This document shows, one piece after another, positions 7,683 to 57,050 of a DNA stretch of 64,000 nucleotides. Both the position numbers and the translations under genes were made by a program. Under the pieces are notes generated by a model. That model searched no databases. It was not told the DNA's origin and saw nothing but the letters and a program-made list of their open reading frames with translations. Origin of the DNA: Eledone cirrhosa. Taxonomy: Eukaryota. The stretch is taken from NCBI GenBank assembly GCA_964016885.1, contig OZ024742.1, positions 229,648,001 through 229,712,000 of the forward strand, in the 5' to 3' direction. Each line of letters begins with the position of its first letter. Positions within the stretch are counted from its first letter, which is position 1.

Positions 7683-8230
7683 CATTATAATAAATGTTCG
7701 GTGAATCCATACGTACATATATATATGTGTGCATGTATGTATATATATAAACATACTCCGGTACGTCTGTATACATATATGTATGTACGTATACATACTT
7801 ATATTTAAGTAAGAGCCGTACTAAGAGTGTGAAATGAAATTTCGTTTCATTTTTTCCGTTTATCGTCTTCGGTGCATCCAGCCGATTAACCCACTCGATA
7901 TGCAAATTAGGCTGCTCAGCCGTTAATATGCATAAGGAAAGTATATACTTTCAGACGTTAAATCATCTGGCAGGAAGGTATACGTTGCCGACGATAGCTA
8001 ATAAGCTTGAAACTAGTTCAGCGTTCCTTTGTCAGTGTTGAACAAACGAGCAACGATGGTTGCTAGACACTACGGCTTAATACGGGATGTTTGTTTACAA
8101 ACGCACCGAGCATTATAATAAAAGTTCGGTGAATCCATAGGTACATATATATATATATATATATATGTGCATGTATGTATATATATATATACTACTGTAC
8201 GTCTGTATGCATATATGTATTTACGTATAT
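7683..8230 (+). repeat. Diverged copy (about 1.3 units, period about 427 bp) of HHR repeat family A
   Basis: gcattataataaa...gttcggtgaatccat recurs at about 7682 and 8110; reverse-complement similarity to 33705-34836; octamer at 7900-7907. Confidence 0.85.
7982..8024 (+). ncRNA. Hammerhead ribozyme type I, degenerate (family A)
   Basis: ACGUUG-CCGACGA-UAGCU aaua AGCUU-GAAA-CUAG-UU-CAGCGU; core U4 changed to C. Confidence 0.7.
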
Positions 8231-8255
8231 ATATATATATATATATATATACACT

Positions 8256-8332
<77 letters not shown>

Positions 8333-11330: not shown

Positions 11331-17200
<5,870 letters not shown>

Positions 17201-33704: not shown

Positions 33705-33815
33705 TTGTAATATAATGAAACGAAATTTCATTTCTCACTCTTAGTACGGCACTTACTTAAATGTAAGTATGTATGTATACGTACATACATATATGTATAC
33801 AGACGTACAGTAGCA

Positions 33816-33871
<56 letters not shown>

Positions 33872-34020
33872 CAGGTACACATATATATATGTACGTATCA
33901 GTTTAGCGGACGTTTATTATAACGGCCGCTTTGTCCGTTTGTAAACAAACGGACAGCCTGATTTATGCCGTACGGTGTTAAGGCAACCACGTCACCTTTT
34001 TGTTCGACACTGACACAGGA

Positions 34021-34063
34021 ACGATGTACTAGTTTCAAGCTTCTTAGCTATCATCAGCACCGT
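34021..34063 (-). ncRNA. Minimal type I hammerhead ribozyme (family A)
   Basis: Minus strand ACGGUG-CUGAUGA-UAGCU aaga AGCUU-GAAA-CUAG-UA-CAUCGU. Confidence 0.9.
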
Positions 34064-34137
34064 ATACCCTTCTGCCAGATGGTTGAACGTTCGAAAGTAT
34101 ATACTTTCCTTATGAAAATTAACGGCTGAGCAGCCTA

Positions 34138-34145
34138 ATTTGCAT
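34138..34145 (-). promoter_or_regulatory. Octamer motif ATGCAAAT, present in each complete family A and C monomer
   Basis: Exact octamer upstream of the HHR on the ribozyme strand; conserved at 7900 and 51847 despite divergence. Function is inferred. Confidence 0.5.
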
Positions 34146-34300
34146 ATCGAGTGAGTTCAGTCGGCCAGGCGTACCGAAAACGATAAGTTGTAATATAATG
34201 AAACGAAATTTCATTTTTCACTCTTAGTACGGTACTTACTTAAATGTAAGTATGTATGTATACGTACATACATATATATTTATAAAGACGTACAGTAGCA

Positions 34301-34384
<84 letters not shown>

Positions 34385-34533
34385 CAGGTACACATATATA
34401 TATGTACGTATCAGTTTAGCGGACGTTTATTATAACGGCCGCTTTGTCCGTTTGTAAACAAACGGACAGCCTGATTTATGCCGTACGGTGTTAAGGCAAC
34501 CACGTCACCTTTTTGTTCGACACTGACACAGGA

Positions 34534-34576
34534 ACGATGTACTAGTTTCAAGCTTCTTAGCTAACATCAGCATCGT
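34534..34576 (-). ncRNA. Hammerhead ribozyme (family A), A9>U core mutant
   Basis: ACGAUG-CUGAUGU-UAGCU...AGCUU-GAAA-CUAG-UA-CAUCGU. Confidence 0.75.
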
Positions 34577-34905
34577 ATACCCTTCTGCCAGATGGTTGAA
34601 CGTTCGAAAGTATATACTTTCCTTATGAAAATTAACAGCTGAGCAGCCTAATTTGCATATCGAGTGAGTTCAGTCGGCCAGGCGTACCGAAAACGATAAA
34701 TTGTAATATAATGAAACGAAATTTCATTCCTCAATCTTAGTACGGCACTTACTTAAATGTAAGTATGTATGTATACGTACATACATATATGTATACAGAT
34801 GTACAGTAGCATGCATATATATATATATATATATATACAAGGTTTAGTAAATAATGAAAAAGTTTCAAGATAAATTTAAAAAAATTGACTTTACCTACTA
34901 TAGTT

Positions 34906-34989
34906 ACCTTTACCGATCGGTTTCGAATCCCAAAAATAAAACGGAGACCATACGGCCTTCGTTGCAAAGAGAGATTCTCGTCAGAAGGT
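34906..34989 (-). ncRNA. Type I hammerhead ribozyme (family B)
   Basis: ACCUU-CUGACGA-GAAUCUC...GGGAUUC-GAAA-CCGAUCGG-UA-AAGGU. Confidence 0.92.
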
Positions 34990-35388
34990 TCTTTTCATTC
35001 AAAGAATATAAAATTCCTGAATTTAAATCACAAACTAGCGCTATCAAAAACTGTTCCTGGGATGAGAGTGGATGATGTAGAACAGGTTTATCAAGGGCCG
35101 TAGCAAAGATAGAGGCAAAAGGAGGTAGGTCAAACTAGCCACCGCTGTTGCCAGCAGCAGTCGGAATGACCCGGTTTGTTCTCAACGTTAGTGGAGGTAG
35201 TAGTAATATGAAATACGTCCCTACACGCACAAGGCGCCAAGGTACGCATGTATTGTCCAACCAAGTGCCAATGTGGTTCAATGGCCGGTTAATAAATTAA
35301 CGAGCCAGAACAAATATAAACAAGGTTTAGTAAATAATGAAAAAGTTTCAAAATAAATTTTAAAAAATTGACTTTACCTACTATAGTT

Positions 35389-35472
35389 ACCTTTACCGAT
35401 CGGTTTCGAATCCCAAAAATAAAACGGAGACCATACGGCCTTCGTTGCAAAGAGAGATTCTCGTCAGAAGGT
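35389..35472 (-). ncRNA. Type I hammerhead ribozyme (family B)
   Basis: Same motif as 34906-34989, offset +483. Confidence 0.92.
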
Positions 35473-35871
35473 TCTTTTCATTCAAAGAATATAAAATTCC
35501 TGAATTTAAATCACAAACTAGCGCTATCAAAAACTGTTCCTGGGATGAGAGTGGATGATGTAGAACAGGTTTATCAAGGGCCGTAGCAAAGATAGAGGCA
35601 AAAGGAGGTAGGTCAAACTAGCCACCGCTGTTGCCAGCAGCAGTCGGAATGACCCGGTTTGTTCTCAACGTTAGTGGAGGTAGTAGTAATATGAAATACG
35701 TCCCTTCACGCACAAGGCGCCAAGGTACGCATGTATTGTCCAACCAAGTGCCAATGTGGTTCAATGGCGGGTTAATAAATTAACGAGCCAGAACAAATAT
35801 AAACAAGGTTTAGTAAATAATGAAAAAGTTTCAAAATAAATTTTAAAAAATTGACTTTACCTACTATAGTT

Positions 35872-35955
35872 ACCTTTACCGATCGGTTTCGAATCCCAAA
35901 AATAAAACGGAGACCATACGGCCTTCGTTGCAAAGAGAGATTCTCGTCAGAAGGT
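35872..35955 (-). ncRNA. Type I hammerhead ribozyme (family B)
   Basis: Same motif as 34906-34989, offset +966. Confidence 0.92.
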
Positions 35956-36363
35956 TCTTTTCATTCAAAGAATATAAAATTCCTGAATTTAAATCACAAA
36001 CTAGCGCTATCAAAAACTGTTCCTGGGATGAGAGTGGATGATGTAGAACAGGTTTATCAAGGGCCGTAGCAAAGATAGAGGCAAAAGGAGGTAGGTCAAA
36101 CTAGCCACCGCTGTTGCCAGCAGCAGTCGGAATGACCCGGTTTGTTCTCAACGTTAGTGGAGGTAGTAGTAATATGAAATACGTCCCTTCACGCACAAGG
36201 CGCCAAGGTACGCATGTATTGTCCAACCAAGTGCCAATGTGGTTCTTTGCTACGGCCCTTGATAAACCTGTTCTACATCATCCACTCTCATCCCAGGAAC
36301 AGTTTTTGATAGCGCTAGTTTGTGATTTAAATTCAGGAATTTTATATTCTTTGAATGAAAAGA

Positions 36364-36447
36364 ACCTTCTGACGAGAATCTCTCTTTGCAACGAAGGCCG
36401 TATGGTCTCCGTTTTATTTTTGGGATTCGAAACCGATCGGTAAAGGT
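36364..36447 (+). ncRNA. Type I hammerhead ribozyme (family B, inverted arm)
   Basis: acctt ctgacga gaatctc...gggattc gaaa ccgatcgg ta aaggt read directly on the plus strand. Confidence 0.92.
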
Positions 36448-36846
36448 AACTATAGTAGGTAAAGTCAATTTTTTAAAATTTATTTTGAAACTTTTTCATT
36501 ATTTACTAAACCTTGTTTATATTTGTTCTGGCTCGTTAATTTATTAACCCGCCATTGAACCACATTGGCACTTGGTTGGACAATACATGCGTACCTTGGC
36601 GCCTTGTGCGTGAAGAGACGTATTTCATATTACTATTACCTCCACTAACGTTGAGAACAAACCGGGTCATTCCGACTGCTGCTGGCAACAGCGGTGGCTA
36701 GTTTGACCTACCTCCTTTTGCCTCTATCTTTGCTACGGCCCTTGATAAACCTGTTCTACATCATCCACTCTCATCCCAGGAACAGTTTTTGATAGCGCTA
36801 GTTTGTGATTTAAATTCAGGAATTTTATACTCTTTGAATGAAAAGA

Positions 36847-36929
36847 ACCTTCTGACGAGAATCTCTCTTTGCAACGAAGGCCGTATGGTCTCCGTTTTAT
36901 TTTGGGATTCGAAACCGATCGGTAAAGGT
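36847..36929 (+). ncRNA. Type I hammerhead ribozyme (family B, inverted arm)
   Basis: Same motif, one T shorter in the stem II insert. Confidence 0.92.
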
Positions 36930-37287
36930 AACTATAGTAGGTAAAGTCAATTTTTTAAAATTTATTTTGAAACTTTTTCATTATTTACTAAACCTTGTTT
37001 ATATTTGTTCTGGCTCGTTAATTTATTAACCCGCCATTGAACCACATTGGCACTTGGTTGGACAATACATGCGTACCTTGGCGCCTTATGCCTGAAGGGA
37101 CGTATTTCATATTACATATATATATATATATATACATACAGGTACACATATATATATGTACGTATCAGTTTAGCGGACGTTTATTATAACGCCCGCTTTG
37201 TCCGTTTGTAAACAAGCGGACAGCCTGATTTATGCCGTACGGTGTTAAGGCAACTACGTCACCTTTTTGTTCAACGCTGACACAGGA

Positions 37288-37330
37288 ACGATGTACTAGT
37301 TTCAAGCTTCTTAGCTATCATCAGCACCGT
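37288..37330 (-). ncRNA. Minimal type I hammerhead ribozyme (family A)
   Basis: Same motif as 34021-34063. Confidence 0.9.
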
Positions 37331-37565
37331 ATACCCTTCTGCCAGATGGTTGAACTTTCGAAAGTATATACTTTCCTTATGAAAATTAACGGCTGAGCAG
37401 CCTAATTTGCATATCGAGTGAGTTCAGTCGGCCAGGCGTACCGAAAACGATAAGTTTTAATATAATGAAACGAAATTTCATTTCTCACTCTTAGTACGGC
37501 ACTTACTTAAATGTAAGTATGTATGAATACGTACATACATATATGTATACAGACGTACAGTAGCA

Positions 37566-37683
<118 letters not shown>

Positions 37684-37834
37684 TACAGGTACACATATAT
37701 ATATGTACGTATCAGTTTAGCGGACGTTTATTATAACGCCCGCTTTGTCCGTTTGTAAACAAGCGGACAGCCTGATTTATGCCGTACGGTGTTAAGGTAA
37801 CTACGTCACCTTTTTGTTCAACACTGACACAGGA

Positions 37835-37877
37835 ACGATGTATTAGTTTCAAGCTACTTAGCTATCATCAGCACCGT
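37835..37877 (-). ncRNA. Hammerhead ribozyme (family A), stem III mutant
   Basis: Core intact; GAAACUAAUA replaces GAAACUAGUA. Confidence 0.75.
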
Positions 37878-38112
37878 ATACCCTTCTGCTAGATGGTTGA
37901 ACGTTCGAAAGTATATACTTTCCTTATGAAAATTAACGGCTGAGCACCCTAATTTGCATATCAAGTGAGTTCAGTCGGCCACGCGTACCGAAAACGATAA
38001 GTTGTAATATAATGAAACGAAATTTCATTTTTCACTCTTAGTACGGCACTTACTTAAATGTAAGTATGTATGTATACGTACATACATATATGTATACAGA
38101 CGTACAGTAGCA

Positions 38113-38158
<46 letters not shown>

Positions 38159-38680
38159 CATACAGGTACACATATATATATGTACGTATCAGTTTAGCGG
38201 ACGTTTATTATAATATGATAATATATATCAAAGGTATACATTGAGTTAGAAACTCAAAATAGTCTCTTACAATTAAATAACTCAAAGAAAGAGATATTTC
38301 TGAGCCGTGCAACATAATTGAATATAAAAGAGAGATAAACACAGATATAAACATACATGTGTTCAAATTGTAAGGGACCAAGTTCGCTAGGTGCAAAAAT
38401 ACTAACTCTTAACAATATGGTTTGCCAGAATCAATTTAAAATAATAAATGAAGAAAAAGAAGTACAAACCATATTGGGCAACTGCCTGAACATCCAGACA
38501 GCTTTGGTAGCTGTTTCACAATTTTAGCGAAGGAAATTACCAATTATCTGCTCATCAGTGGGTGTAAAATTAGTAATCCCTTCACTTCTAAGTATCTCCA
38601 AAGAATTGGTCTCTTACGATTTGAACCCATATATGTTTATATCTGTGTTTATCTCTCTTTTATATTCAATTATATGTATA

Positions 38681-39670
<990 letters not shown>

Positions 39671-40177: not shown

Positions 40178-40314
40178 ATTAGAATACTGGAGCGTGTTTG
40201 AGTCAAACACCCTCTTCGTATTATAGAAATGACAGTAAAAGGTATAGCTCAATGCAGTTAAACAGAGCCAAAAAATTAAGAGAGTAAAACAAAGAATCCT
40301 TTAATACATCAAAA

Positions 40315-40371
40315 GTTTTTATTAGCCGACAATGTTTCGTCCTATTAAGGACTCATCAGGGCAATCAAAAC
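40315..40371 (-). ncRNA. Type I hammerhead ribozyme (left arm of inverted repeat)
   Basis: Reverse complement of 43270-43326. Confidence 0.9.
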
Positions 40372-40697
40372 AACAAGAGGTAATATCGGCAGATACAAGC
40401 CAGAAACTCTGAAGAATATGGAGTGTACATACACTAATGTCTTGCAAAGATATACGATAATAAAAATGAAAATAAAGATAAAAATAATAAAATTATAATA
40501 ACTAAGGATGTAGATAACATTAAGAACCATATTACAAATATAGTCCAAAGCCACCAACCTAAATCTAAACAAAATTGGTTATATAGAGCAGGAATTATAT
40601 ATAACACAATATAATACATTATAATAATAATATATTTATACCAACATTAAAATTCCAAATTAAAAATCAAAAGATACAATATATACATGTATATATG

Positions 40698-40735
<38 letters not shown>

Positions 40736-43269
40736 ACAATACACATATCTATGTTCTATTACACAGAAATTAAGCCCTATTAGAAGTTTGAATATTAAAA
40801 ATAAGCATGGTAATAGTGAAAATAATACTAATACATCTACCCAATATACATGAGGCAATAATATGATATAATTACAAGAAACACTTATAACAAATAATAA
40901 ACAACAAAATTATATAATTCAATACAATATAATAAAGTAGAATAGATAATCCCCGGTTAATTTACAGAAACAATATAGATGTCACAATGAAATACAATGA
41001 TAAAATGTTAACATTATATTAACAATTACCATAAACAATATGTACAAAATGATTCATACTGGGTTACATAATAAATGAGGAAATATAAATCATATAATAT
41101 AATACTAAAAAAAACTATAATGGTACAGGGAACAATTATGATGTTACAGAAAAAATATGATGTTACAGAAAAAAATATACAGACATCTAACATGATATGT
41201 AAAGTCTAAATATCATAATGTTACATATTACAATATTAAAATATTAAAAAATCCAGACATCTTACATGATATATAAAGTTTAAATATCATAATGTTATAT
41301 ATAATAAACGGTAAGTAATAAGGATCTATATCATAATGTAATATATTTTAAAATTGGCATACAATATATAAATACTTATAATTACAAGGTTAGTAGACAG
41401 ACATGTGTGGATGAGTGAGCGAAGCCAGACAGTGAATAGTAAATAGAATATAGAATAAAACAAATAAATACAATCAACCGGAAATTACAAAACAAAAGCA
41501 AATGTATACACATTTAGGCCTCGCGTGCATTAAGAAATTAGGTAAACACCAAGGAAAGCGATCATTTTAAATGACTCCAAACCCTATCTGATAAATTAAT
41601 ATTAAAAATATCAAACCCGTCCGATAAGGTAGTATAATATTAGCTATAGTTTAAGTCATTAAAGTATATAAACTTTAATGTATCATTACAAATGTTTACA
41701 AAAAGGAATAAAATTACACTATCATATACGCAACGATATCTAAAAAACTGACTTATATTTAACCCCCCCCCCTCTTTTATGCTCTGTTCTATTATTTATT
41801 ATAGTATATCGAATATATTTTATGCCACTTCGCACCCTCCATATATTTTGTCAATTCTGTCCCCATTAGCCTACCTTAACTCTACTTAAGTCAGTTTTTT
41901 TAGATATCGTTGCGTATATGATAGTGTAATTTTATTCCTTTTTGTAAACATTTGTAATGATACATTAAAGTTTATATACTTTAATGACTTAAACTATAGC
42001 TAATATTATACTACCTTATCGGACGGGTTTGATATTTTTAATATTAATTTATCAGATAGGGTTTGGAGTCATTTAAAATGATCGCTTTCCTTGGTGTTTA
42101 CCTAATTTCTTAATGCACGCGAGGCCTAAATGTGTATACATTTGCTTTTGTTTTGTAATTTCCGGTTGATTGTATTTATTTGTTTTATTCTATATTCTAT
42201 TTACTATTCACTGTCTGGCTTCGCTCACTCATCCACACATGTCTGTCTACTAACCTTGTAATTATAAGTATTTATATATTTTATGCCAATTTTAAAATAT
42301 ATTACATTATGATATAGATCCTTATTACTTACCGTTTATTATATATAACATTATGATATTTAAACTTTATATATCATGTAAGATGTCTGGATTTTTTAAT
42401 ATTTTAATATTGTAATATGTAACATTATGATATTTAGACTTTACATATCATGTTAGATGTCTGTATATTTTTTTCTGTAACATCATATTTTTTCTGTAAC
42501 ATCATAATTGTTCCCTGTACCATTATAGTTTTTTTTAGTATTATATTATATGATTTATATTTCCTCATTTATTATGTAACCCAGTATGAATCATTTTGTA
42601 CATATTGTTTATGGTAATTGTTAATATAATGTTAACATTTTATTATTGTATTTCATTGTGACATCTATATTGTTTCTGTAAATTAACCGGGGATTATCTA
42701 TTCTACTTTATTATATTGTATTGAATTATATAATTTTGTTGTTTATTATTTGTTATAAGTGTTTCTTGTAATTATATCATATTATTGCCTCATGTATATT
42801 GGGTAGATGTATTAGTATTATTTTCACTATTACCATGCTTATTTTTAATATTCAAACTTCTAATAGGGCTTAATTTCTGTCTAATAGAACATAGATATGT
42901 GTATTGTTATATGTGTGTGTGTGGGTGTGTGTGTGTGTGCGCACATATATACATGTATATATTGTACCTTTTGATTTTTAATTTGGAATTTTAATGTTGG
43001 TATAAATATATTATTATTATAATGTATTATATTGTGTTATATATAATTCCTGCTCTATATAACCAATTTTGTTTAGATTTAGGTTGGTGGCTTTGGACTA
43101 TATTTGTAATATGGTTCTTAATGTTATCTACATCCTTAGTTATTATAATTTTATTATTTTTATCTTTATTTTCATTTTTATTATCGTATATCTTTGCAAG
43201 ACATTAGTGTATGTACACTCCATATTCTTCAGAGTTTCTGGCTTGTATCTGCCGATATTACCTCTTGTT

Positions 43270-43326
43270 GTTTTGATTGCCCTGATGAGTCCTTAATAGG
43301 ACGAAACATTGTCGGCTAATAAAAAC
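43270..43326 (+). ncRNA. Type I hammerhead ribozyme (right arm of inverted repeat)
   Basis: GUUUUgAUUGCC-CUGAUGA-GUCCU uaau AGGAC-GAAA-C auu G-UC-GGCuAAUaAAAAC; predicted cleavage after C43313. Confidence 0.92.
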
Positions 43327-43365
43327 TTTTGATGTATTAAAGGATTCTTTGTTTTACTCTCTTAA

Positions 43366-43997
<632 letters not shown>

Positions 43998-45602: not shown

Positions 45603-47865
45603 TATTGTTATACTTTGGGAGGGTCATGTTGCCAGTAAGAAACACACGCACCAGTTGCTTTCACTTCAATTTATTATAATAAATTTATAAATTTCCGGTT
45701 GGTTGGTTGGTTCCGCAACCAGATGGTTGTTTATATATTGTCAAAGTTCTTTCGTCACACATTCTGTGACCTCTTCAGTGACTGTGGATTCTTTTCTTTG
45801 TTTTTGTGCCTCTCCTTTGTTCTGTCCTACGCCATCTTGTTTCTGTGTGTGTGTTGTGTACTCAGTCTGCGCATGCGCCACATCCGAGTGTCTGTGTGTG
45901 TTTATATTCGTTTATTTATTTGTTTATTTACATGTTACTGGTTGTTTGTTTGTTCTATGTGCGTGTGTGTTTTCATTTTATCCTTAATTGTAAGTTGTGT
46001 TGTTGCTGTTCCACTCATGTATTCTATTTAATTTTGGTTGTAATTCTTTTATGTTTATTGCCTCTGTGATTTGTCTAAACATTGCGTCTTTTCTGTGTGA
46101 AGATTCTATTTTTATGTCTATGTTCTCTAATTTACCCTTATGTTCTATTTTAGCATGTTGGAAGAGTACATATGATTCTTTACTATCTTGAAGGTCTCGC
46201 TATTGTTCATTTATCCGTTCCCCTACACTACGAGCTGTCTCACCTATGAACACTATATTTATATCTCTACATTGTCCTTCAGTACATCTTATGCTATATA
46301 CTACATTTCTAGTTTTACAGTTAATATGGGGGCTTAATTTAAAGGTTATACATTTCTTATCTATACAGCGGGGTCTTTGAAAAGGGTATGTCTTGCTAAT
46401 CAGTGTTTTTATGGAGGTACCTGGTCTTTCTACTATCTTAATATTGAGTTGATGTTTATCTAGGGCCCTTCTAAATTTGTAAGCTAATTCACCTCTAGGG
46501 GTTGTATCGATGAACATTACACTCTGGTATTTATTGCTATCATACCATGAGTTTATTCTATTAGCCTTATTCCTAGTTCTTTCTATTCTATTCCAAAATC
46601 TGCTCCTATACAAGGGGTAGGTCCCATTTGTGTCATTATTTACCATTTTTTCCCATTTGGTTCTGGCTCCTCTATACACTCTGATTTTATCTCTCTGATT
46701 GTAACCAGAGAACTGCATACGGTGGATGGAGTATTGTATGTGTCTCTCTAGTCCTTCGGGGTTGCACATGCGGGCCACGTTTCTCATCACCCGTACCAAA
46801 TCCGCAATCAGTATGTTGATTTTGGTACGGTCCGAAACAGCTGAGTTTCGGTGGATCAGATATTTGAAAGTCATGGGTTTGGCATAATGGGAATGGAGGA
46901 TTTGTTTTTTGTTATTAATGGTATCTAACCAGAGCTCTGTGTCTAGTACAGGTAATCGATGGTTGGAGTGTTTGCTTGGGTAGTCTATAGTAACTCTAAT
47001 ACTCTGGTGAAAGGAGTTAGCTATTTGCTGGATGCTTTCCATTGTGTTTTTCTCTAATTCCTGACTGTTCTCTAGTGGGGGTGTTTTAACTACGATGTTT
47101 ATATCATCAACGTAGCGGGAGTACATTAGTAGGATTAAGGGGTCTTCTAATTGTTCTTTAAGTTTAAGTTTAAGTCTACTGTCCCACCATACCATGAATA
47201 AGTTAGCTATGTCGCCTCCAATGACTGCTCCCTCCTCTTGGGCATATGTTTTTCCATTAAATTTGAACATATGTTCCTTAAGAGTTAATTTTATGCTGGC
47301 CCCCACCGCATGTGCAATCATTTTCTTTAGTTCATCGTGGTTTTCGGGTGTCCGTATGGCTCTGGTCCACCTTGGCCATTGAGGTAATGGTAGGTAGTCT
47401 GCCTCTTGCTGGTCTTGTAGGGCACAGGTTGCTAAGGTCATATATGTCTAGATAATTATTACTATAGGTAAGTTTAAGTAGGAGTACAAGCTCACCGGTA
47501 TCAATCCCACGGAACTCAACATTGCTCTCACTGATCATTTCTACGCATTTCTCCACAGCAAAATCCACCTCAATAGATGTGGCATACTTAGGCGGCCGTT
47601 GTAATACAGATAATTCATCAGATTCGACCGTAGTGTTGCCGTATATATTTGTGTTGTTGTTGTTGAATTCATCTGTTAATGAGATGTCGGCCATATTTAT
47701 ACCGTCAATTTTGTCGGGATATCTATTGATATTCTCTAAAGTATTTTGATTTAGTTTTATCTGTTTAAGCCACTTTAGTTTCTTGTTAAAGTGCTTATCA
47801 CATTCTTGAACAATGTACTCTTCTTCAGGACGTATAAGGTTTATAAATATTAGTTTTTCTCTTGG
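45603..47865 (-). mobile_element. Penelope-like element, inverted internally deleted copy
   Basis: 413-aa ORF with YSRYVDD and NVVYSIRC...FIGETARSVGER; jumps from PPKYAT directly to SI.VDFAVEK at about 47578. Confidence 0.92.
45740..45782 (-). ncRNA. Minimal hammerhead ribozyme in PLE 3' end
   Basis: Reverse complement of 51058-51100. Confidence 0.7.
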
Positions 47866-47875
47866 TGTGGTGATC

Positions 47876-50800
47876 TACGGTCGACTCTGATGAATTATCT
47901 GTATTACAACTGCCGCCTAAGTATGCCACGTTCAATAAGGTAAATATGATAGATGTTTGTCAGAAATAGAAAAATCATTTACAAAATTACGTTGGAGCCT
48001 CAAAAACAAAAAAAACAACAAAAGTAACAACATACGCACACACATATACAACACGCATCCCAACAACAACAGACACACAGACACACACAACAATAACAAC
48101 ACACACAACAATAATAACATACACTTAGACAACAACAACAACACACATCAACAACAGCACACATCGACAACAACAACAGCACACACATTCAATGCCTCTC
48201 ACCACCACCACCACAATCTTAACAAACACACAGACACAGAAAACAGGTAATGGCAGTAGCACAGAAATAAGAGGAGGTAATAGGATTGAAAGGAGAAGGG
48301 AGACTATGGACAGAGACGAACACACAGACACACAAAATATAGTAGATAATAACAATGAGCCAGAGTAAAGAGACAGGCGTAATAATGAGAGACATAGAAA
48401 CAACCATGAGGCTGTTGGTGGAAATAGAAATAGAAACAACACAACTAACAATAACAATAGCACTAGTACACGTAAAGCAGCAGCCTGGAACTCTACTTTT
48501 TATAATCCCTCCGATAAGTCGTTCGACCTGCGACGAGTCCACGGCACGACTCTAGCTTTTAACAAACGCACGCAATTGCCGTCGCAGGTCGATGAACAAA
48601 CAGAAGCACAATTTAGTATAGCTAGATCTAAACTTAGAAATATTATAGAACAGTATAGCAAGAAGCATAATAGAATGGAGGCCCAGCAACTGGGAGAAAA
48701 ATATGCAAATGGCTTGCGTAAGCTCATGCAGCGCTCGCGTAATGGAGAGATAGCATGCTTTCCAACAGACAAGTCTGGCAGAATGTCGGTTGACAGTCTG
48801 CCAAACTACATCCAGGCAATGCAACCCCACATCACCAACACAAGAGAAATAGCACCACAAGAGCATGAGGATAGTGAAAAATCCCTCAATGCCCATATGG
48901 TGATGTGGACAAATATAATGCAGCCAATCTAAAGGACTGCCAACAACTTCCAGGCCTGGAACAATGATGTGCCAGCGTTGTATGGGCTTCGAAAAGACCA
49001 TAAAACGGGCAGTGACCTTGTCAAGGGACCACCAACACGGCCAGTCTGTGGAGCTAACGTTGCTAGTAACTATAGACTGTCCTACTTCCTCTCCCTGATC
49101 ATACGCCCCATCATTGAAATGTCCCCAGATGTATGTGACAGCACGGAGGACCTCCTCAGCAGAATCGGCGAGAGTAACCGATCTAGGGACCTAACAAACT
49201 GCATAATAGGTAGTATGGATGTTGGGTCCATGTATCCATCTATTGACGTGGATTTTGCTGTGGAGAAATGCGTAGAAATGATCAGTGAGAGCAATGTTGA
49301 GTTCCGTGGGATTGATACCAGTGAGCTTGTACTCCTACTTAAACTTACCTATAGTAATAATTATCTAGACATATATGACCTTAGCAACCTGTGCCCTACA
49401 AGACCAGCAAGAGGGAGACCACCTACCATTACCTCAGTGGCCAAGAAAACCCACACAGATAGATGGAACGGGTGGACCAGAGCCATACGGACACCCGAAA
49501 ATCACGATGAACTAAAGAAAATGATTGCACATGCGGTGGGGGCCAGCATAAAATTAACCCTTAAGGAACATATGTTCAAATTTAATGGAAAAACATATGC
49601 CCAAGAGGAGGGAGCAGCCATTGGTGTTAGCATTGCAGGCGACATAGCTAACTTATTCATGGTATGGTGGGACAGTAGACTTAAACTTAAACTTAAAGAA
49701 CAATTAGAAGACTCCTTAACCCTGATAATGTACTCCCGCTACGTTGATGAAATAAAAATCGTAGTTAAAACACCCCACTTGAGAACAGTCAGTAATTAGA
49801 GAAAAACACAATGGAAAGCATCCAGCAAATAGCTAACTCCTTTCACCAGAGTATTAGAGTTACTATAGACTACCCAAGCAAACACTCCAACCATCGATTA
49901 CCTGTACTAGACACAGAGCTCTGGTTAGATACCATTAATAACAAAAAACAAATCCTCCATTCCCATTATGCCAAACCCATGACTTCCAAATATCTGATCC
50001 ACCGAAACTCAGCTGTTTCAGACCGGACCAAAATCAACATACTGATTGCGGATTTGGTACGGGTGATGAGAAACGTGTCCCGCATGTGCAACCCCGAAGG
50101 ACTAGAGAGACACATACAATACTCCATCCACCGTATGCAGTTCTCTGGTTACAATCAGAGAGATAAAATCAGAGTGTATAGAGGAGCCAGAACCAAATGG
50201 GAAAAAATGGTAAATAATGACACAAATGGGACCTGCCCCTTGTATAGGAGCAGATTTTGGAATAGAATAGAAAGAACTAGGAATAATTCTAATAGAATAA
50301 ACTCATGGTATGATAGCAATAAATACCAGAGTGTAATGTTCATCGATACAACCCCTAGAGGTGAATTAGCTTACAAATTTAGAAGGGCCCTAGATAAACA
50401 TCAACTCAATATTAAGATAGTAGAAAGACCAGGTACCTCCATAAAAACACTTATTAGCAAGACATACCCTTTTCAAAGACCTCCCTGTATAGATAAGAAA
50501 TGTATAACCTGTAAATTAAGCCCTCATATTAACTGTAAAACTAGAAATGTAGTATATAGCAAAGATGTACTGAAGGACAATGTAAAGATAAAAATATAGT
50601 GTTCATAGGTGAGACAGCTCCTAGTGTAAATGAACACTAGCGAGACCTTCAAGATAGTAAAGAATCATCTGTACTCTACCAACATGCTGAAATAGAACAT
50701 AAGGGTAAATTAGAGAACATAGACATAAAAATAGAATCTACACACAGAAAAAACGCAATGTTTAGACAAATCACAGAGGCAATAAACATAAAAGAATTAC

Positions 50801-51248
50801 AACCAAAATTAAATAGAAAAGATGAGTGGAACAGCAACATTACAACTTACAATTAAGGACAAAATGAAAACACACCCGCACATAGAACAAACAACCAACC
50901 AGTAACATGTTAATAAACAAATAAATAAACGAATATAAACACACACAGACACCCGGATGTGGTGCATGCGCAAACTGAGCACACAACACACACACAGAAA
51001 CAAGATGGTGTAGGACAGAACAAAGGAGAAGCACAAAAACAAAGAAAAGAATCCACAGTCACTGAAGAGGTCACAGAATGTGTGACGAAAGAACTTTGAC
51101 AATATATAAACAACCATCTGGTTGTGGAACCAACCAACCGGAAACTTATAAATTCCTAAATGTATAAATTTATTATAATAAATTGAAGTGAAACAACTGG
51201 TGCGTGTGTTTCTTATTGACAACATGACCCTCCCAAAGTATAACAATA
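47876..51248 (+). mobile_element. Penelope-like element (RT + C-terminal GIY-YIG + pLTR), disrupted ORF
   Basis: PPKYAT, KLRW, PTDKSG, LYGLRKDHK, TRPVC, SMDVGSMYPSI, QEEGAAIG, YSRYVDE, LPVLD, NVVY...FIGET; several stops and frameshifts. Confidence 0.95.
51058..51100 (+). ncRNA. Minimal hammerhead ribozyme in PLE 3' end
   Basis: GUCA-CUGAAGA-g-GUCACA gaaug UGUGAC-GAAA-G aa C-UU-UGAC; one extra G after the core; about 150 nt from the element end. Confidence 0.7.
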
Positions 51249-51454: not shown

Positions 51455-51501
<47 letters not shown>

Positions 51502-51716
51502 GTTAAAAATGTATATCCACATATGTATACTGAAATACTAGTATGCATATGAATACACACACGTATACATATGTAGATGTACCGAGTTTTTCACTGGTCA
51601 CTTTACTGTGAGTGTCCAGCTATTCTGTATGTAAACACACAGACAAACCGGTTTTTAGAGTCATACTGGTTTTTGAGGAAACACCTTTCCTCTATTCTTC
51701 AGAAAGCCAGGCAAGG

Positions 51717-51761
51717 AATATTGAACTAGTTTCGATGTTGTTACATCTCATCAGCAATATT
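51717..51761 (-). ncRNA. Minimal type I hammerhead ribozyme (family C)
   Basis: AAUAUUG-CUGAUGA-GAUGU aaca ACAUC-GAAA-CUAG-UU-CAAUAUU. Confidence 0.93.
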
Positions 51762-52223
51762 TACCTATCTTCCGGCCTCTCTAGAGAATCGTAAAAGCAC
51801 ATATCGTTATATGCTTTTTCTATGAAAATTAGTAGTGGGCAGACTAATTTGCATAGAGCGTGAGTACGTACCGGTTCAACGGAGACGATAAAAACAAATA
51901 ACGAAACGAAATTAAATTTCGTTTCGTTTGTAACTCACTTTTGTATGACTGACGCTTAAACAATTAAGTTAAAAATGTACATCCACATATGTATACTGAA
52001 ATACTAGTATGCATATGAATATTGTTTAAGCGCCAGTCATACAAAAGTGAGTTACAAACGAAACGAAATTTAATTTCGTTTCGTTATTTGTTTTTATCGT
52101 CTCCGTTGAACCGGTACGTACTCACGCTCTATGCAAATTAGTCTGCCCACTACTAATTTTCATAGAAAAAGCATATAACGATATGTGCTTTTACGATTCT
52201 CTAGAGAGGCCGGAAGATAGGTA

Positions 52224-52268
52224 AATATTGCTGATGAGATTTAACAACATCGAAACTAGTTCAATATT
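52224..52268 (+). ncRNA. Minimal type I hammerhead ribozyme (family C, inverted arm)
   Basis: aatattg ctgatga gattt aaca acatc gaaa ctag tt caatatt; one stem II mismatch. Confidence 0.9.
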
Positions 52269-52556
52269 CCTTGCCTGGCTTTCTGAAGAATAGAGGAAAG
52301 GTGTTTCCTCAAAAACCAGTATGACTCTAAAAACCGGTTTGTCTGTGTGTTTACATACAGAATAGCTGGACACTCACAGTAAAGTGACCAGTGAAAAACT
52401 CGGTACATCTACATATGTATACGTGTGTGTATTCATATGCATACTAGTATTTCAGTATACATATGTGGATGTACATTTTTAACTTAATTGTTTAAGCGTC
52501 AGTCATACAAAAGTGAGTTACAAACGAAACGAAATTTAATTTCGTTTCGTTATTTG

Positions 52557-54636: not shown

Positions 54637-57050
54637 CATACACACACATACATATTTACGTAAACACACGCATACATACACATGCAGACACATACACATA
54701 TACAGAGAAGCACATATGCATACAGAGACGTTCAGATAAACACACACACACATACACATTCACAGAATCACACGCACACATATACACACGCATACATACA
54801 CATGCACACATATACACATACATACAGAGAAGCACATATGCATACAGAGACGTTCAGATAAACACACACACACACATACACATTCACACAAACACACGTA
54901 CACATATACACACGCATACATACACATGCAGACATATACACATATACAGAGAAGCACATATGCATACAGAGACGTTCAGATAAACACACACACACACATA
55001 CACATTCACAGAATCACGCGCACACATATACACACGCATACATACACATGCACACATATACACATAAATACAGAGAAGCACATATGCATACAGAGACGTT
55101 CAGATAAACACACACATACACATTCACAGAATCACGCGCACACATATACACACGCATACATACACATGCACACATATACACATAAATATAGAGAAGCACA
55201 TATGCATACAGAGACGTTCAGATAAACACACACACACACATACACATTCACAGAATCACACGTACACATTTACACACGCATACATACACATGCACACATA
55301 TACACATAAATACAGAGAAGCACATATGCATACAGAGACGTTCAGATAAACACACACACACATACACATTCACAGAATCACACGCACACATATACACACG
55401 CATACATACACATGCAGACATATACACATATACAGAGAAGCACATATGCATACAGAGACGTTCAGATAAACACACACACACACACACACATACACATTCA
55501 CACAAACACACGTACACATATACACACGCATACATACACATGCAGACACATACACATATACAGAGAAGCACATATGCATACAGAGACGTTCAGATAAACA
55601 CACACACACACATACACATTCACAGAATCACGCGCACACATATACACACGCATACATACACATGCACACATATACACATAAATACAGAGAAGCACATATG
55701 CATACAGAGACGTTCAGATAAACACACACATACACATTCACAGAATCACGCGCACACATATACACACGCATACATACACATGCACACATATACACATAAA
55801 TATAGAGAAGCACATATGCATACAGAGACGTTCAGATAAACACACACACACACATACACATTCACAGAATCACACGTACACATTTACACACGCATACATA
55901 CACATGCACACATATACACATAAATACAGAGAAGCACATATGCATACAGAGACGTTCAGATAAACACACACACACATACACATTCACAGAATCACACGCA
56001 CACATATACACACGCATACATACACATGCAGACATATACACATATACAGAGAAGCACATATGCATACAGAGACGTTCAGATAAACACACACACACACACA
56101 CACATACACATTCACACAAACACACGTACACATATACACACGCATACATACACATGCACACATATACACATACAGAGAAGCACATATACATACAGAGACG
56201 TTCAGATAAACACACACACATACACATTCATACAAACACACGTACACATATACACACGCATACATACACATGCACACATATACACATAAATACAGAGAAG
56301 CACATATGCATACAGAGACGTTCAGATAAACACACACACACATACACATTCACAGAATCACACGCACACATATACACACGCATACATACACATGCACACA
56401 TATACACATAAATACAGAGAAGCACATATGCATACTGACACATTCAGATACACATACACACACATACACATTCACATGAACGCACGCATACATACACATG
56501 CACACATATACATGCACACATATACACACATACACATTCACATAAACACACGCACACATATACACACGCTTACATACATGCACACATATTCATATAGAGA
56601 TATTCAAATACATATAACACATACACATTCACATAAACAAACGCATACATACACATGCACATATATACACATAAATACATATGCATACAGACACATTTAG
56701 ATACACACACACATACACATTCACATAAACACACGTATACATACACAAGCACACATATACACATATGTACAGAGAAGCACAAATGTATACTGACATGTTC
56801 AGATACACATACACACATACACATTCTTCACATAAACACATGCATACATACACAAGCACACATATACACATACATATAGACACACGCATATATACACATG
56901 CACACAGAAATACAGAGAAGCACATATGCTTACAGATACATTCAGATACATATACACACACATACACATACATATAGACAGGCATACACACATATACACA
57001 CGCATACACTCATATATACACACACATATATGCCCACACACATATACATA
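54637..57050. repeat. About 122-bp CA-rich minisatellite, about 14 regular units plus degenerate tail
   Basis: Recurring cagagaagcacatatgcatacagagacgttcagataaa anchor. Confidence 0.95.

Follow-up and report, generated by a model that had tools for sequence, protein, structure and literature searches.

The window, by which we mean the whole 64,000-nt stretch of Eledone cirrhosa DNA that was analysed, carries at positions 34837-37115 what is very probably one insertion of a dispersed, non-coding non-LTR retrozyme, likely mobilized in trans by the RT/GIY-YIG protein of a Penelope-like element (PLE). The class is a known one and the 483-nt repeat is a new member of it: its units are non-coding, lie in tandem with a hammerhead in each, have a GC content below 50% and are dispersed, and its insertions show the inverted truncated copy, the tail at one end and the microsatellite target of PLE insertions. 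The repeat is likely a non-autonomous PLE that integrates by priming on both strands of its target. We regard it as a non-autonomous client because none of the copies sampled is contiguous with a PLE ORF; its mobilizing partner is a candidate only, with the donor protein most likely coming from a Neptune-like family.

The array had been recognized in a first-pass annotation, made from the letters alone, as retrozyme-like: five near-identical hammerheads with a CUGACGA core, a GUA site and a palindromic stem III, spaced 483 bp apart in each arm and accompanied by no credible ORF. These points are all borne out below. The annotation was silent on the orientation of the arms and on the TA run inside a second repeat that adjoins both of their 3′ ends, and its reading was made without the Penelope-like insertion signature, which points to the likely mobilizing machinery. 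The features of the locus, together with a diverged relative elsewhere in the window, are as follows.

33705..38213, minus strand: host repeat, tandem units of ~500 bp; every unit contains a TA run and a minimal hammerhead-like motif of its own
34815..34837, no strand: (TA)n target, left half (from the sequence)
34837..36245, minus strand: left arm, 2.9 units of the 483-nt retrozyme (TRF, arm mapping)
34906..34989, minus strand: type I hammerhead 1, core 34984, predicted cut after 34911
35389..35472, minus strand: type I hammerhead 2, core 35467, predicted cut after 35394
35872..35955, minus strand: type I hammerhead 3, core 35950, predicted cut after 35877
36244..36245, no strand: head-to-head arm junction, a 2-nt overlap (microhomology), not palindromic
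36244..37115, plus strand: right arm, 1.8 units of the 483-nt retrozyme (self-BLAST, arm mapping)
36364..36447, plus strand: type I hammerhead 4, core 36369, predicted cut after 36442
36847..36929, plus strand: type I hammerhead 5, core 36852, 1-nt deletion in loop II, predicted cut after 36924
37005..37115, plus strand: segment at the 3′ end of the right arm
37116..37134, no strand: (TA)n target, right half (from the sequence)
14453..14830, plus strand: relative with a single arm, diverged (80%); hammerhead core 14678; terminates at site A and is followed by a TA run

The 483-nt unit thus occupies 34837-37115 as 2.9 minus-strand and 1.8 plus-strand copies. TRF reports 34831-36245 as a repeat of period 483 (2.9 copies, 99% matches), and self-BLAST identifies 36244-37115 as an opposite-strand copy. 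The arms meet head-to-head with their 3′ ends facing out. With unit positions counted from 36368, the left arm ends 3′ at position 155 (site A), 80 nt past the cut site, and is truncated 5′ at position 190; the right arm ends 3′ at position 263-266 (site B) and is truncated 5′ at 360. Because the host repeat, whose hammerhead-like cores lie at 34057, 34570, 37324 and 37871 (minus strand), keeps one orientation on both sides, the arms are to be read as an insertion into a TA run, and for the same reason of target a duplication of the site is unreadable. The insertion is young, since the eight substitutions and one deletion that distinguish its units are all unshared. A read-through RNA across the inverted locus would fold as a long hairpin, which tells against the retrozyme scenario given below. 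The host repeat is itself a retrozyme-like element nested with the 483-nt repeat, and has an 80% relative at 7717-8296.

A structure-aware scan found exactly five type I hammerheads at the locus, all with a palindromic stem III and a GUA site. Core-to-core distance is 483 in either arm, and cut-to-cut distances are 483, 483 and 482, the short interval arising because the last hammerhead lacks one U in loop II. Each motif has a 5-bp stem I, a canonical core, a branched stem II of ~53 nt and a 3-bp stem III with a palindrome. The palindrome is weak as a hairpin (-0.9 kcal/mol) and far stronger as a 10-bp self-duplex (-16.6), so that cleavage as a dimer is likely from the modelled energies; a point on the other side is that the lowest-energy fold of the isolated hammerhead retains stems I and II and has no stem III (z -0.62). 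Cleavage as a dimer has been reported for axolotl retrozymes (PMC7229834). A scan of the window at Rfam gathering thresholds returned no matches, probably on account of the ~53-nt stem II. Among genomic copies, three stem II pairs show double changes, one of them occurring as A-U, G-C and U-A (20 sequences); the search pattern fixed stems I and III and the core, leaving stem II alone informative. These compensatory changes suggest that the hammerhead fold is under selection.

The 483-nt RNA as a whole is predicted to be moderately structured, with 57% of the monomer paired (z -2.1 linear, -2.0 circular). Its GC content is 0.40, and the longest ATG ORF of the circularized unit is 39 aa on the hammerhead strand and 44 aa on the other. 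The copies are pure unit arrays between TA runs, apparently without LTR/PBS/PPT architecture.

The unit is a genome-wide dispersed repeat and not a local satellite. It has 1,310 candidate places in the 3.0-Gb genome, which is rich in PLE fragments and TA microsatellites, and the full-length matches among the 40 scored places are 98-100% identical. On genome-wide copy number, a check that the annotation had proposed, exact patterns give 246 ends followed by TA at site A (unit position 155) and 79 at site B (263), against no matches for reversed-pattern controls; a gapped hammerhead-core pattern matches 1,743 times, diverged subfamilies included. The subfamilies, which are 72-92% identical, and a sister family with a 488-nt unit are likewise non-coding and end at corresponding sites. 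In the sister family (L300-L329) the ends lie at 165 and about 270. A separate sister retrozyme is seen as a pair with 459-nt spacing (L293:8257-8716). The subfamily at 72-77% identity (L330-L335) has a different palindromic stem III.

The insertion ends are unusually regular. We classified 154 insertions at 152 loci. The A ends supplied the first 100 of the 246 in the list, the 79 B ends another 33 loci, and BLAST its 20 best loci, which are biased toward long arrays. The counts leave out overlapping fetches, arms below 90% identity and fragments with neither an A nor a B end. L152 contributes one exact duplicate that was likewise dropped: there a two-armed insertion is present twice, 3.4 kb apart, through either segmental duplication or an assembly repeat. 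An inverted 5′-truncated copy flanks 94 of the 154, and in these two-armed insertions the ends are A+B in 88 cases, A+A in one and B+B in none, with one odd end in the other five. For those located through their A end, B lies opposite in 61 of 63. The two sites are fixed and 108 nt apart, which gives a 108-nt tail at one end only. Among the 60 single-armed insertions, at least five A loci and at least one B locus hide a very short second arm, opposite in orientation and of the other type. A TA run adjoins 109 of the 114 3′ ends that had not been chosen by pattern. The 5′ truncation points vary between insertions; arm lengths have medians of 404 nt (A) and 232 nt (B) and a maximum of 4,270, and arm junctions most often overlap by 0-2 nt. 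L1-style twin priming of separate parts of one linear monomer was rejected, since in 80 of 89 simple two-arm loci the stretches of the unit copied by the two arms overlap.

These ends suggest the following scenario. The multi-unit arms would be transcribed, and a fraction of the resulting RNA would be cleaved by its hammerheads, which would probably act as dimers via their palindromic stem III. Both strands of a TA run would be nicked by a dimer of the PLE protein, and reverse transcription would be primed internally, at site A on one strand and at site B on the other. The two cDNAs would continue through one or several units before being joined at their truncated ends, and array length would thereby be set at integration. 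The template is most likely a monomer circle, either ligated or held shut by the hammerhead stems, at roughly an even chance. Uncut multimers would also serve at some loci; that they are the main template seems somewhat less probable. The complete model, in which a PLE enzyme dimer reads a ribozyme-made 483-nt RNA circle repeatedly from two start sites, one per strand of the TA target, and tandems are made at integration and not later, we hold tentatively, at a little under an even chance. If it is true, the 483-nt family records in DNA how animal retrozymes spread.

The principal alternative, which we consider possible but somewhat on the doubtful side, keeps the same element and the same PLE machinery and takes the template to be always a linear read-through multimer, with circles, if any form, as by-products. 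For an anole PLE in vitro, uncleaved RNA is reported as the dominant substrate (PMC11167929). Within the arrays, rare variants at sites covered at least twice fall into 252 confined to a single unit, 23 present in all units and eight present in some. Loci where only part of the units carry a variant are L151, L110, L121, L026, L027 and L028, which tells against a pure monomer circle. The eight partial variants, and above all L151, where two variants mark a single unit in both arms, require either a heterogeneous multimer template or gene conversion. At L121 and L028 the first and third units share variants that the second is without, an arrangement that fits a dimer template or a dimer duplication. 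A linear copy, however, can neither outgrow its source nor carry a new variant into every unit. As a rule each locus has one haplotype, and among 37 well-covered arrays 24 different haplotypes run through a whole array, one of these being an artefact of the chimeric L131; arms reach 8.8 near-identical units, and the 423 exact internal A sites against 246 terminal ones imply no giant donor array in the assembly, which may have collapsed one. Read as reverse-transcription passes, 229 of 243 cross the hammerhead cut site, and there are no insertions at that site in 287 segments. Together, the haplotypes and the clean passes favour repeated passage through a monomer and re-multimerization at integration, the outcome expected of a circle, closed or nicked. 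The circular template that the annotation had proposed is therefore partly sustained, by the haplotypes and the passes, and partly called into question by the unit-specific variants at a few loci.

If some templates began at a hammerhead cut, as the linear reading allows, an excess of 5′ ends is expected near it, and unit positions 69-76 hold 14 ends against 4.45 expected; other 8-nt windows, however, also show an approximately 3-fold excess. At 74-76 there are five of 79 B arms (0.66 expected) and none of 162 A arms, a split that was made post hoc, and such stops are compatible with a nicked circle as well. The modest excess hints at cleavage in vivo, and fits both circle and multimer models. 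At L131 (G000:C3:159223270-159227000) the two arms are different haplotypes, which implies that two templates were used and is a further point against a pure monomer circle; its B arm covers one full unit and then breaks off precisely at the cut site. Contigs in three of four listed runs, of unstated kind, that span the unit and join unit end to start were set aside, because tandem DNA gives the same join.

It is improbable that the unit is what remains of a PLE terminal repeat, multiplied in place through unequal crossover, as in a model proposed for other retrozymes (bioRxiv 10.64898/2026.07.22.740005). Variants common to adjacent or alternating units (L026, L027, L121, L028) are in keeping with such amplification, as is a pooled unit mismatch of 0.48% within an arm against 0.93% between opposite arms of a locus (2.36% between loci), but a within-locus comparison over 35 loci gives no significant difference (Wilcoxon p=0.24). 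Moreover, fixed start sites end both arms at nearly all loci, nine of the 23 all-unit rare variants span both inverted arms, there are 252 single-unit variants to eight partial ones, and the units in the window share none of their eight substitutions. The haplotypes and the insertion-free passes also disfavour local crossover as the main route. The recent amplification that had been inferred from high identity between units accordingly stands as dispersal by retrotransposition and not as local growth of the array.

Slightly less probable again is an origin of the inverted structure from fold-back self-priming on an antisense template, which has been suggested for rotifer PLEs (PMC3846280). Near-palindromic arm junctions do exceed expectation (8 of 89 against about two), but the other 81 are non-palindromic, including that of the window (positions 190 and 360), and fold-back alone gives no account of one A end paired with one B end.

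Priming at two sites on opposite strands, the reading that we prefer, has its closest parallel in the PLEs. Inverted truncated copies, a one-sided tail and a TA bias are described as PLE hallmarks (PMC8557442, PMC3846280), and in the anole system both target strands are cut and extended in vitro, and the tail is bounded by two internal sites at which reverse transcription starts (PMC11167929). Young, intact RT and GIY-YIG ORFs are found in the same genome, in families that appear Neptune-like from their C-terminal endonuclease and cysteine linker rather than from a tree. Two coding families follow the same rule. One, of 784 aa, has A+B ends in 15 of 15 divergent pairs and a 38-nt tail; the other, of 938 aa, has A+B ends in 7 of 7 (overlapping fetches included) and a 68-nt tail. 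In the 938-aa family the first end lies 82 nt after the hammerhead-like cut, against 80 in the 483-nt repeat, and the minimal motif has stem I, the GUA site and a palindromic stem III in common with it.

The least probable alternative is that the unit is the pLTR of a coding PLE and the arrays its truncated copies: hammerhead type, target and end structure do match those of coding PLEs, and only 150 of 10,597 GIY-YIG candidates were scored, but PLE protein matches occur in just 15 of 246 fetched loci (some overlapping) with none joined to an arm 5′ end, the 60 single-arm insertions have no common non-repeat 5′ flank, the arms wrap round the unit and never run into an ORF, and no GIY-YIG locus examined has the unit as its terminal repeat. 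That the unit might be the LTR of a known coding element, which the annotation had named as grounds for abandoning its reading, thus finds no instance among the sampled loci. A partner search by GIY-YIG family and protein yielded no pLTR in common with the unit; in alignments to the pLTRs of three coding families, the 938-aa one among them, 87-92 of 200 shuffles score at least as high as the unit.

Several candidates for a coding partner were considered. At L197 the PLE ORF upstream of a copy belongs to a separate element joined through a TA run, the flank at L067 is locus-specific, and another candidate flank proved to be a non-coding subfamily of 72-77% identity. A full-length Neptune-like element between two pLTRs (L292, G000:C1:145868000-145877900) is a candidate partner; in its minimal hammerhead-like motif the core pair U3-A8 replaces C3-G8, in what we take to be the applicable numbering. 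The window itself contains, at 15237-17134, a two-armed, truncated member of a very young Neptune-like PLE family that has many genomic copies with an intact 784-codon frame, and whose hammerhead-like motif reads GCAA where GAAA is expected.

Among known systems, an account of metazoan non-LTR retrozymes (PMC7229834) describes non-coding tandem units with one type I hammerhead each, GC below 50% (40% here) and co-occurring PLEs, and the short stem III with a palindromic loop resembles axolotl motifs. The 483-nt unit is longer than the 150-450 bp given there, and differs in its long, branched stem II and only moderate self-pairing. That source proposes PLE mobilization; insertion ends are not described in the parts available. 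A second account (bioRxiv 10.64898/2026.07.22.740005) treats retrozymes as non-autonomous PLEs, mostly in arrays of few units as here, and our unit falls inside its 51-972 bp range. Its frog retrozymes have sequence homology to pLTRs and are proposed to amplify locally; here, in contrast, homology to the sampled pLTRs is undetectable, and the insertion signature argues for multimers formed at integration.

With EN+ Neptune-type PLEs (PMC8557442, PMC3846280, PMC11167929), the repeat has in common the inverted 5′-truncated copy, the one-end tail, the (TA)n bias, two internal RT starts and an upstream hammerhead. It differs in having no ORF and several whole units per arm, and its tail, at 108 nt, far exceeds the 30-40 bp on record for PLEs. 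Non-autonomous Chlamys elements such as MRC1 are also non-coding, multicopy, head-to-tail and PLE-mobilized, but resemble their autonomous partner at the 3′ end, unlike the 483-nt repeat, and most Chlamys elements are without canonical hammerheads (PMC8557442). Neither the 483-nt family nor a counted A+B rule is described in the literature searched; the family may be present in Repbase, Dfam or supplements.

These observations bear on which enzyme moves animal retrozymes, and on whether tandems originate by rolling-circle reverse transcription or by local amplification. A Penelope signature that hardly varies is found in hundreds of young copies, in a genome with intact young PLE ORFs, and the RNA measures only 483 nt. 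Such regular ends make the proposed retrozyme-PLE partnership testable: start sites A and B, one per strand, are defined predictions that an in vitro assay already in use could address. That A and B ends pair so strictly in the retrozyme and two coding families sharpens the model of PLE inverted copies and tails. Because long-stem-II hammerheads escape Rfam thresholds, families of this kind may be under-counted.

Finally, we note further elements in the window. Large head-to-head inverted insertions lie at 45603-51248, encoding broken PLE RT/GIY-YIG frames, at 40275-43366, and at 51496-52489, with one hammerhead per arm (52231, plus strand; 51754, minus strand). An AC-rich tandem array of about 15 copies of a 122-bp unit spans 54664-57030. 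Additional type I hammerhead candidates lie at 39239 and 57422 (both plus strand), and motifs resembling the latter recur in L246, L252, L256 and L266.
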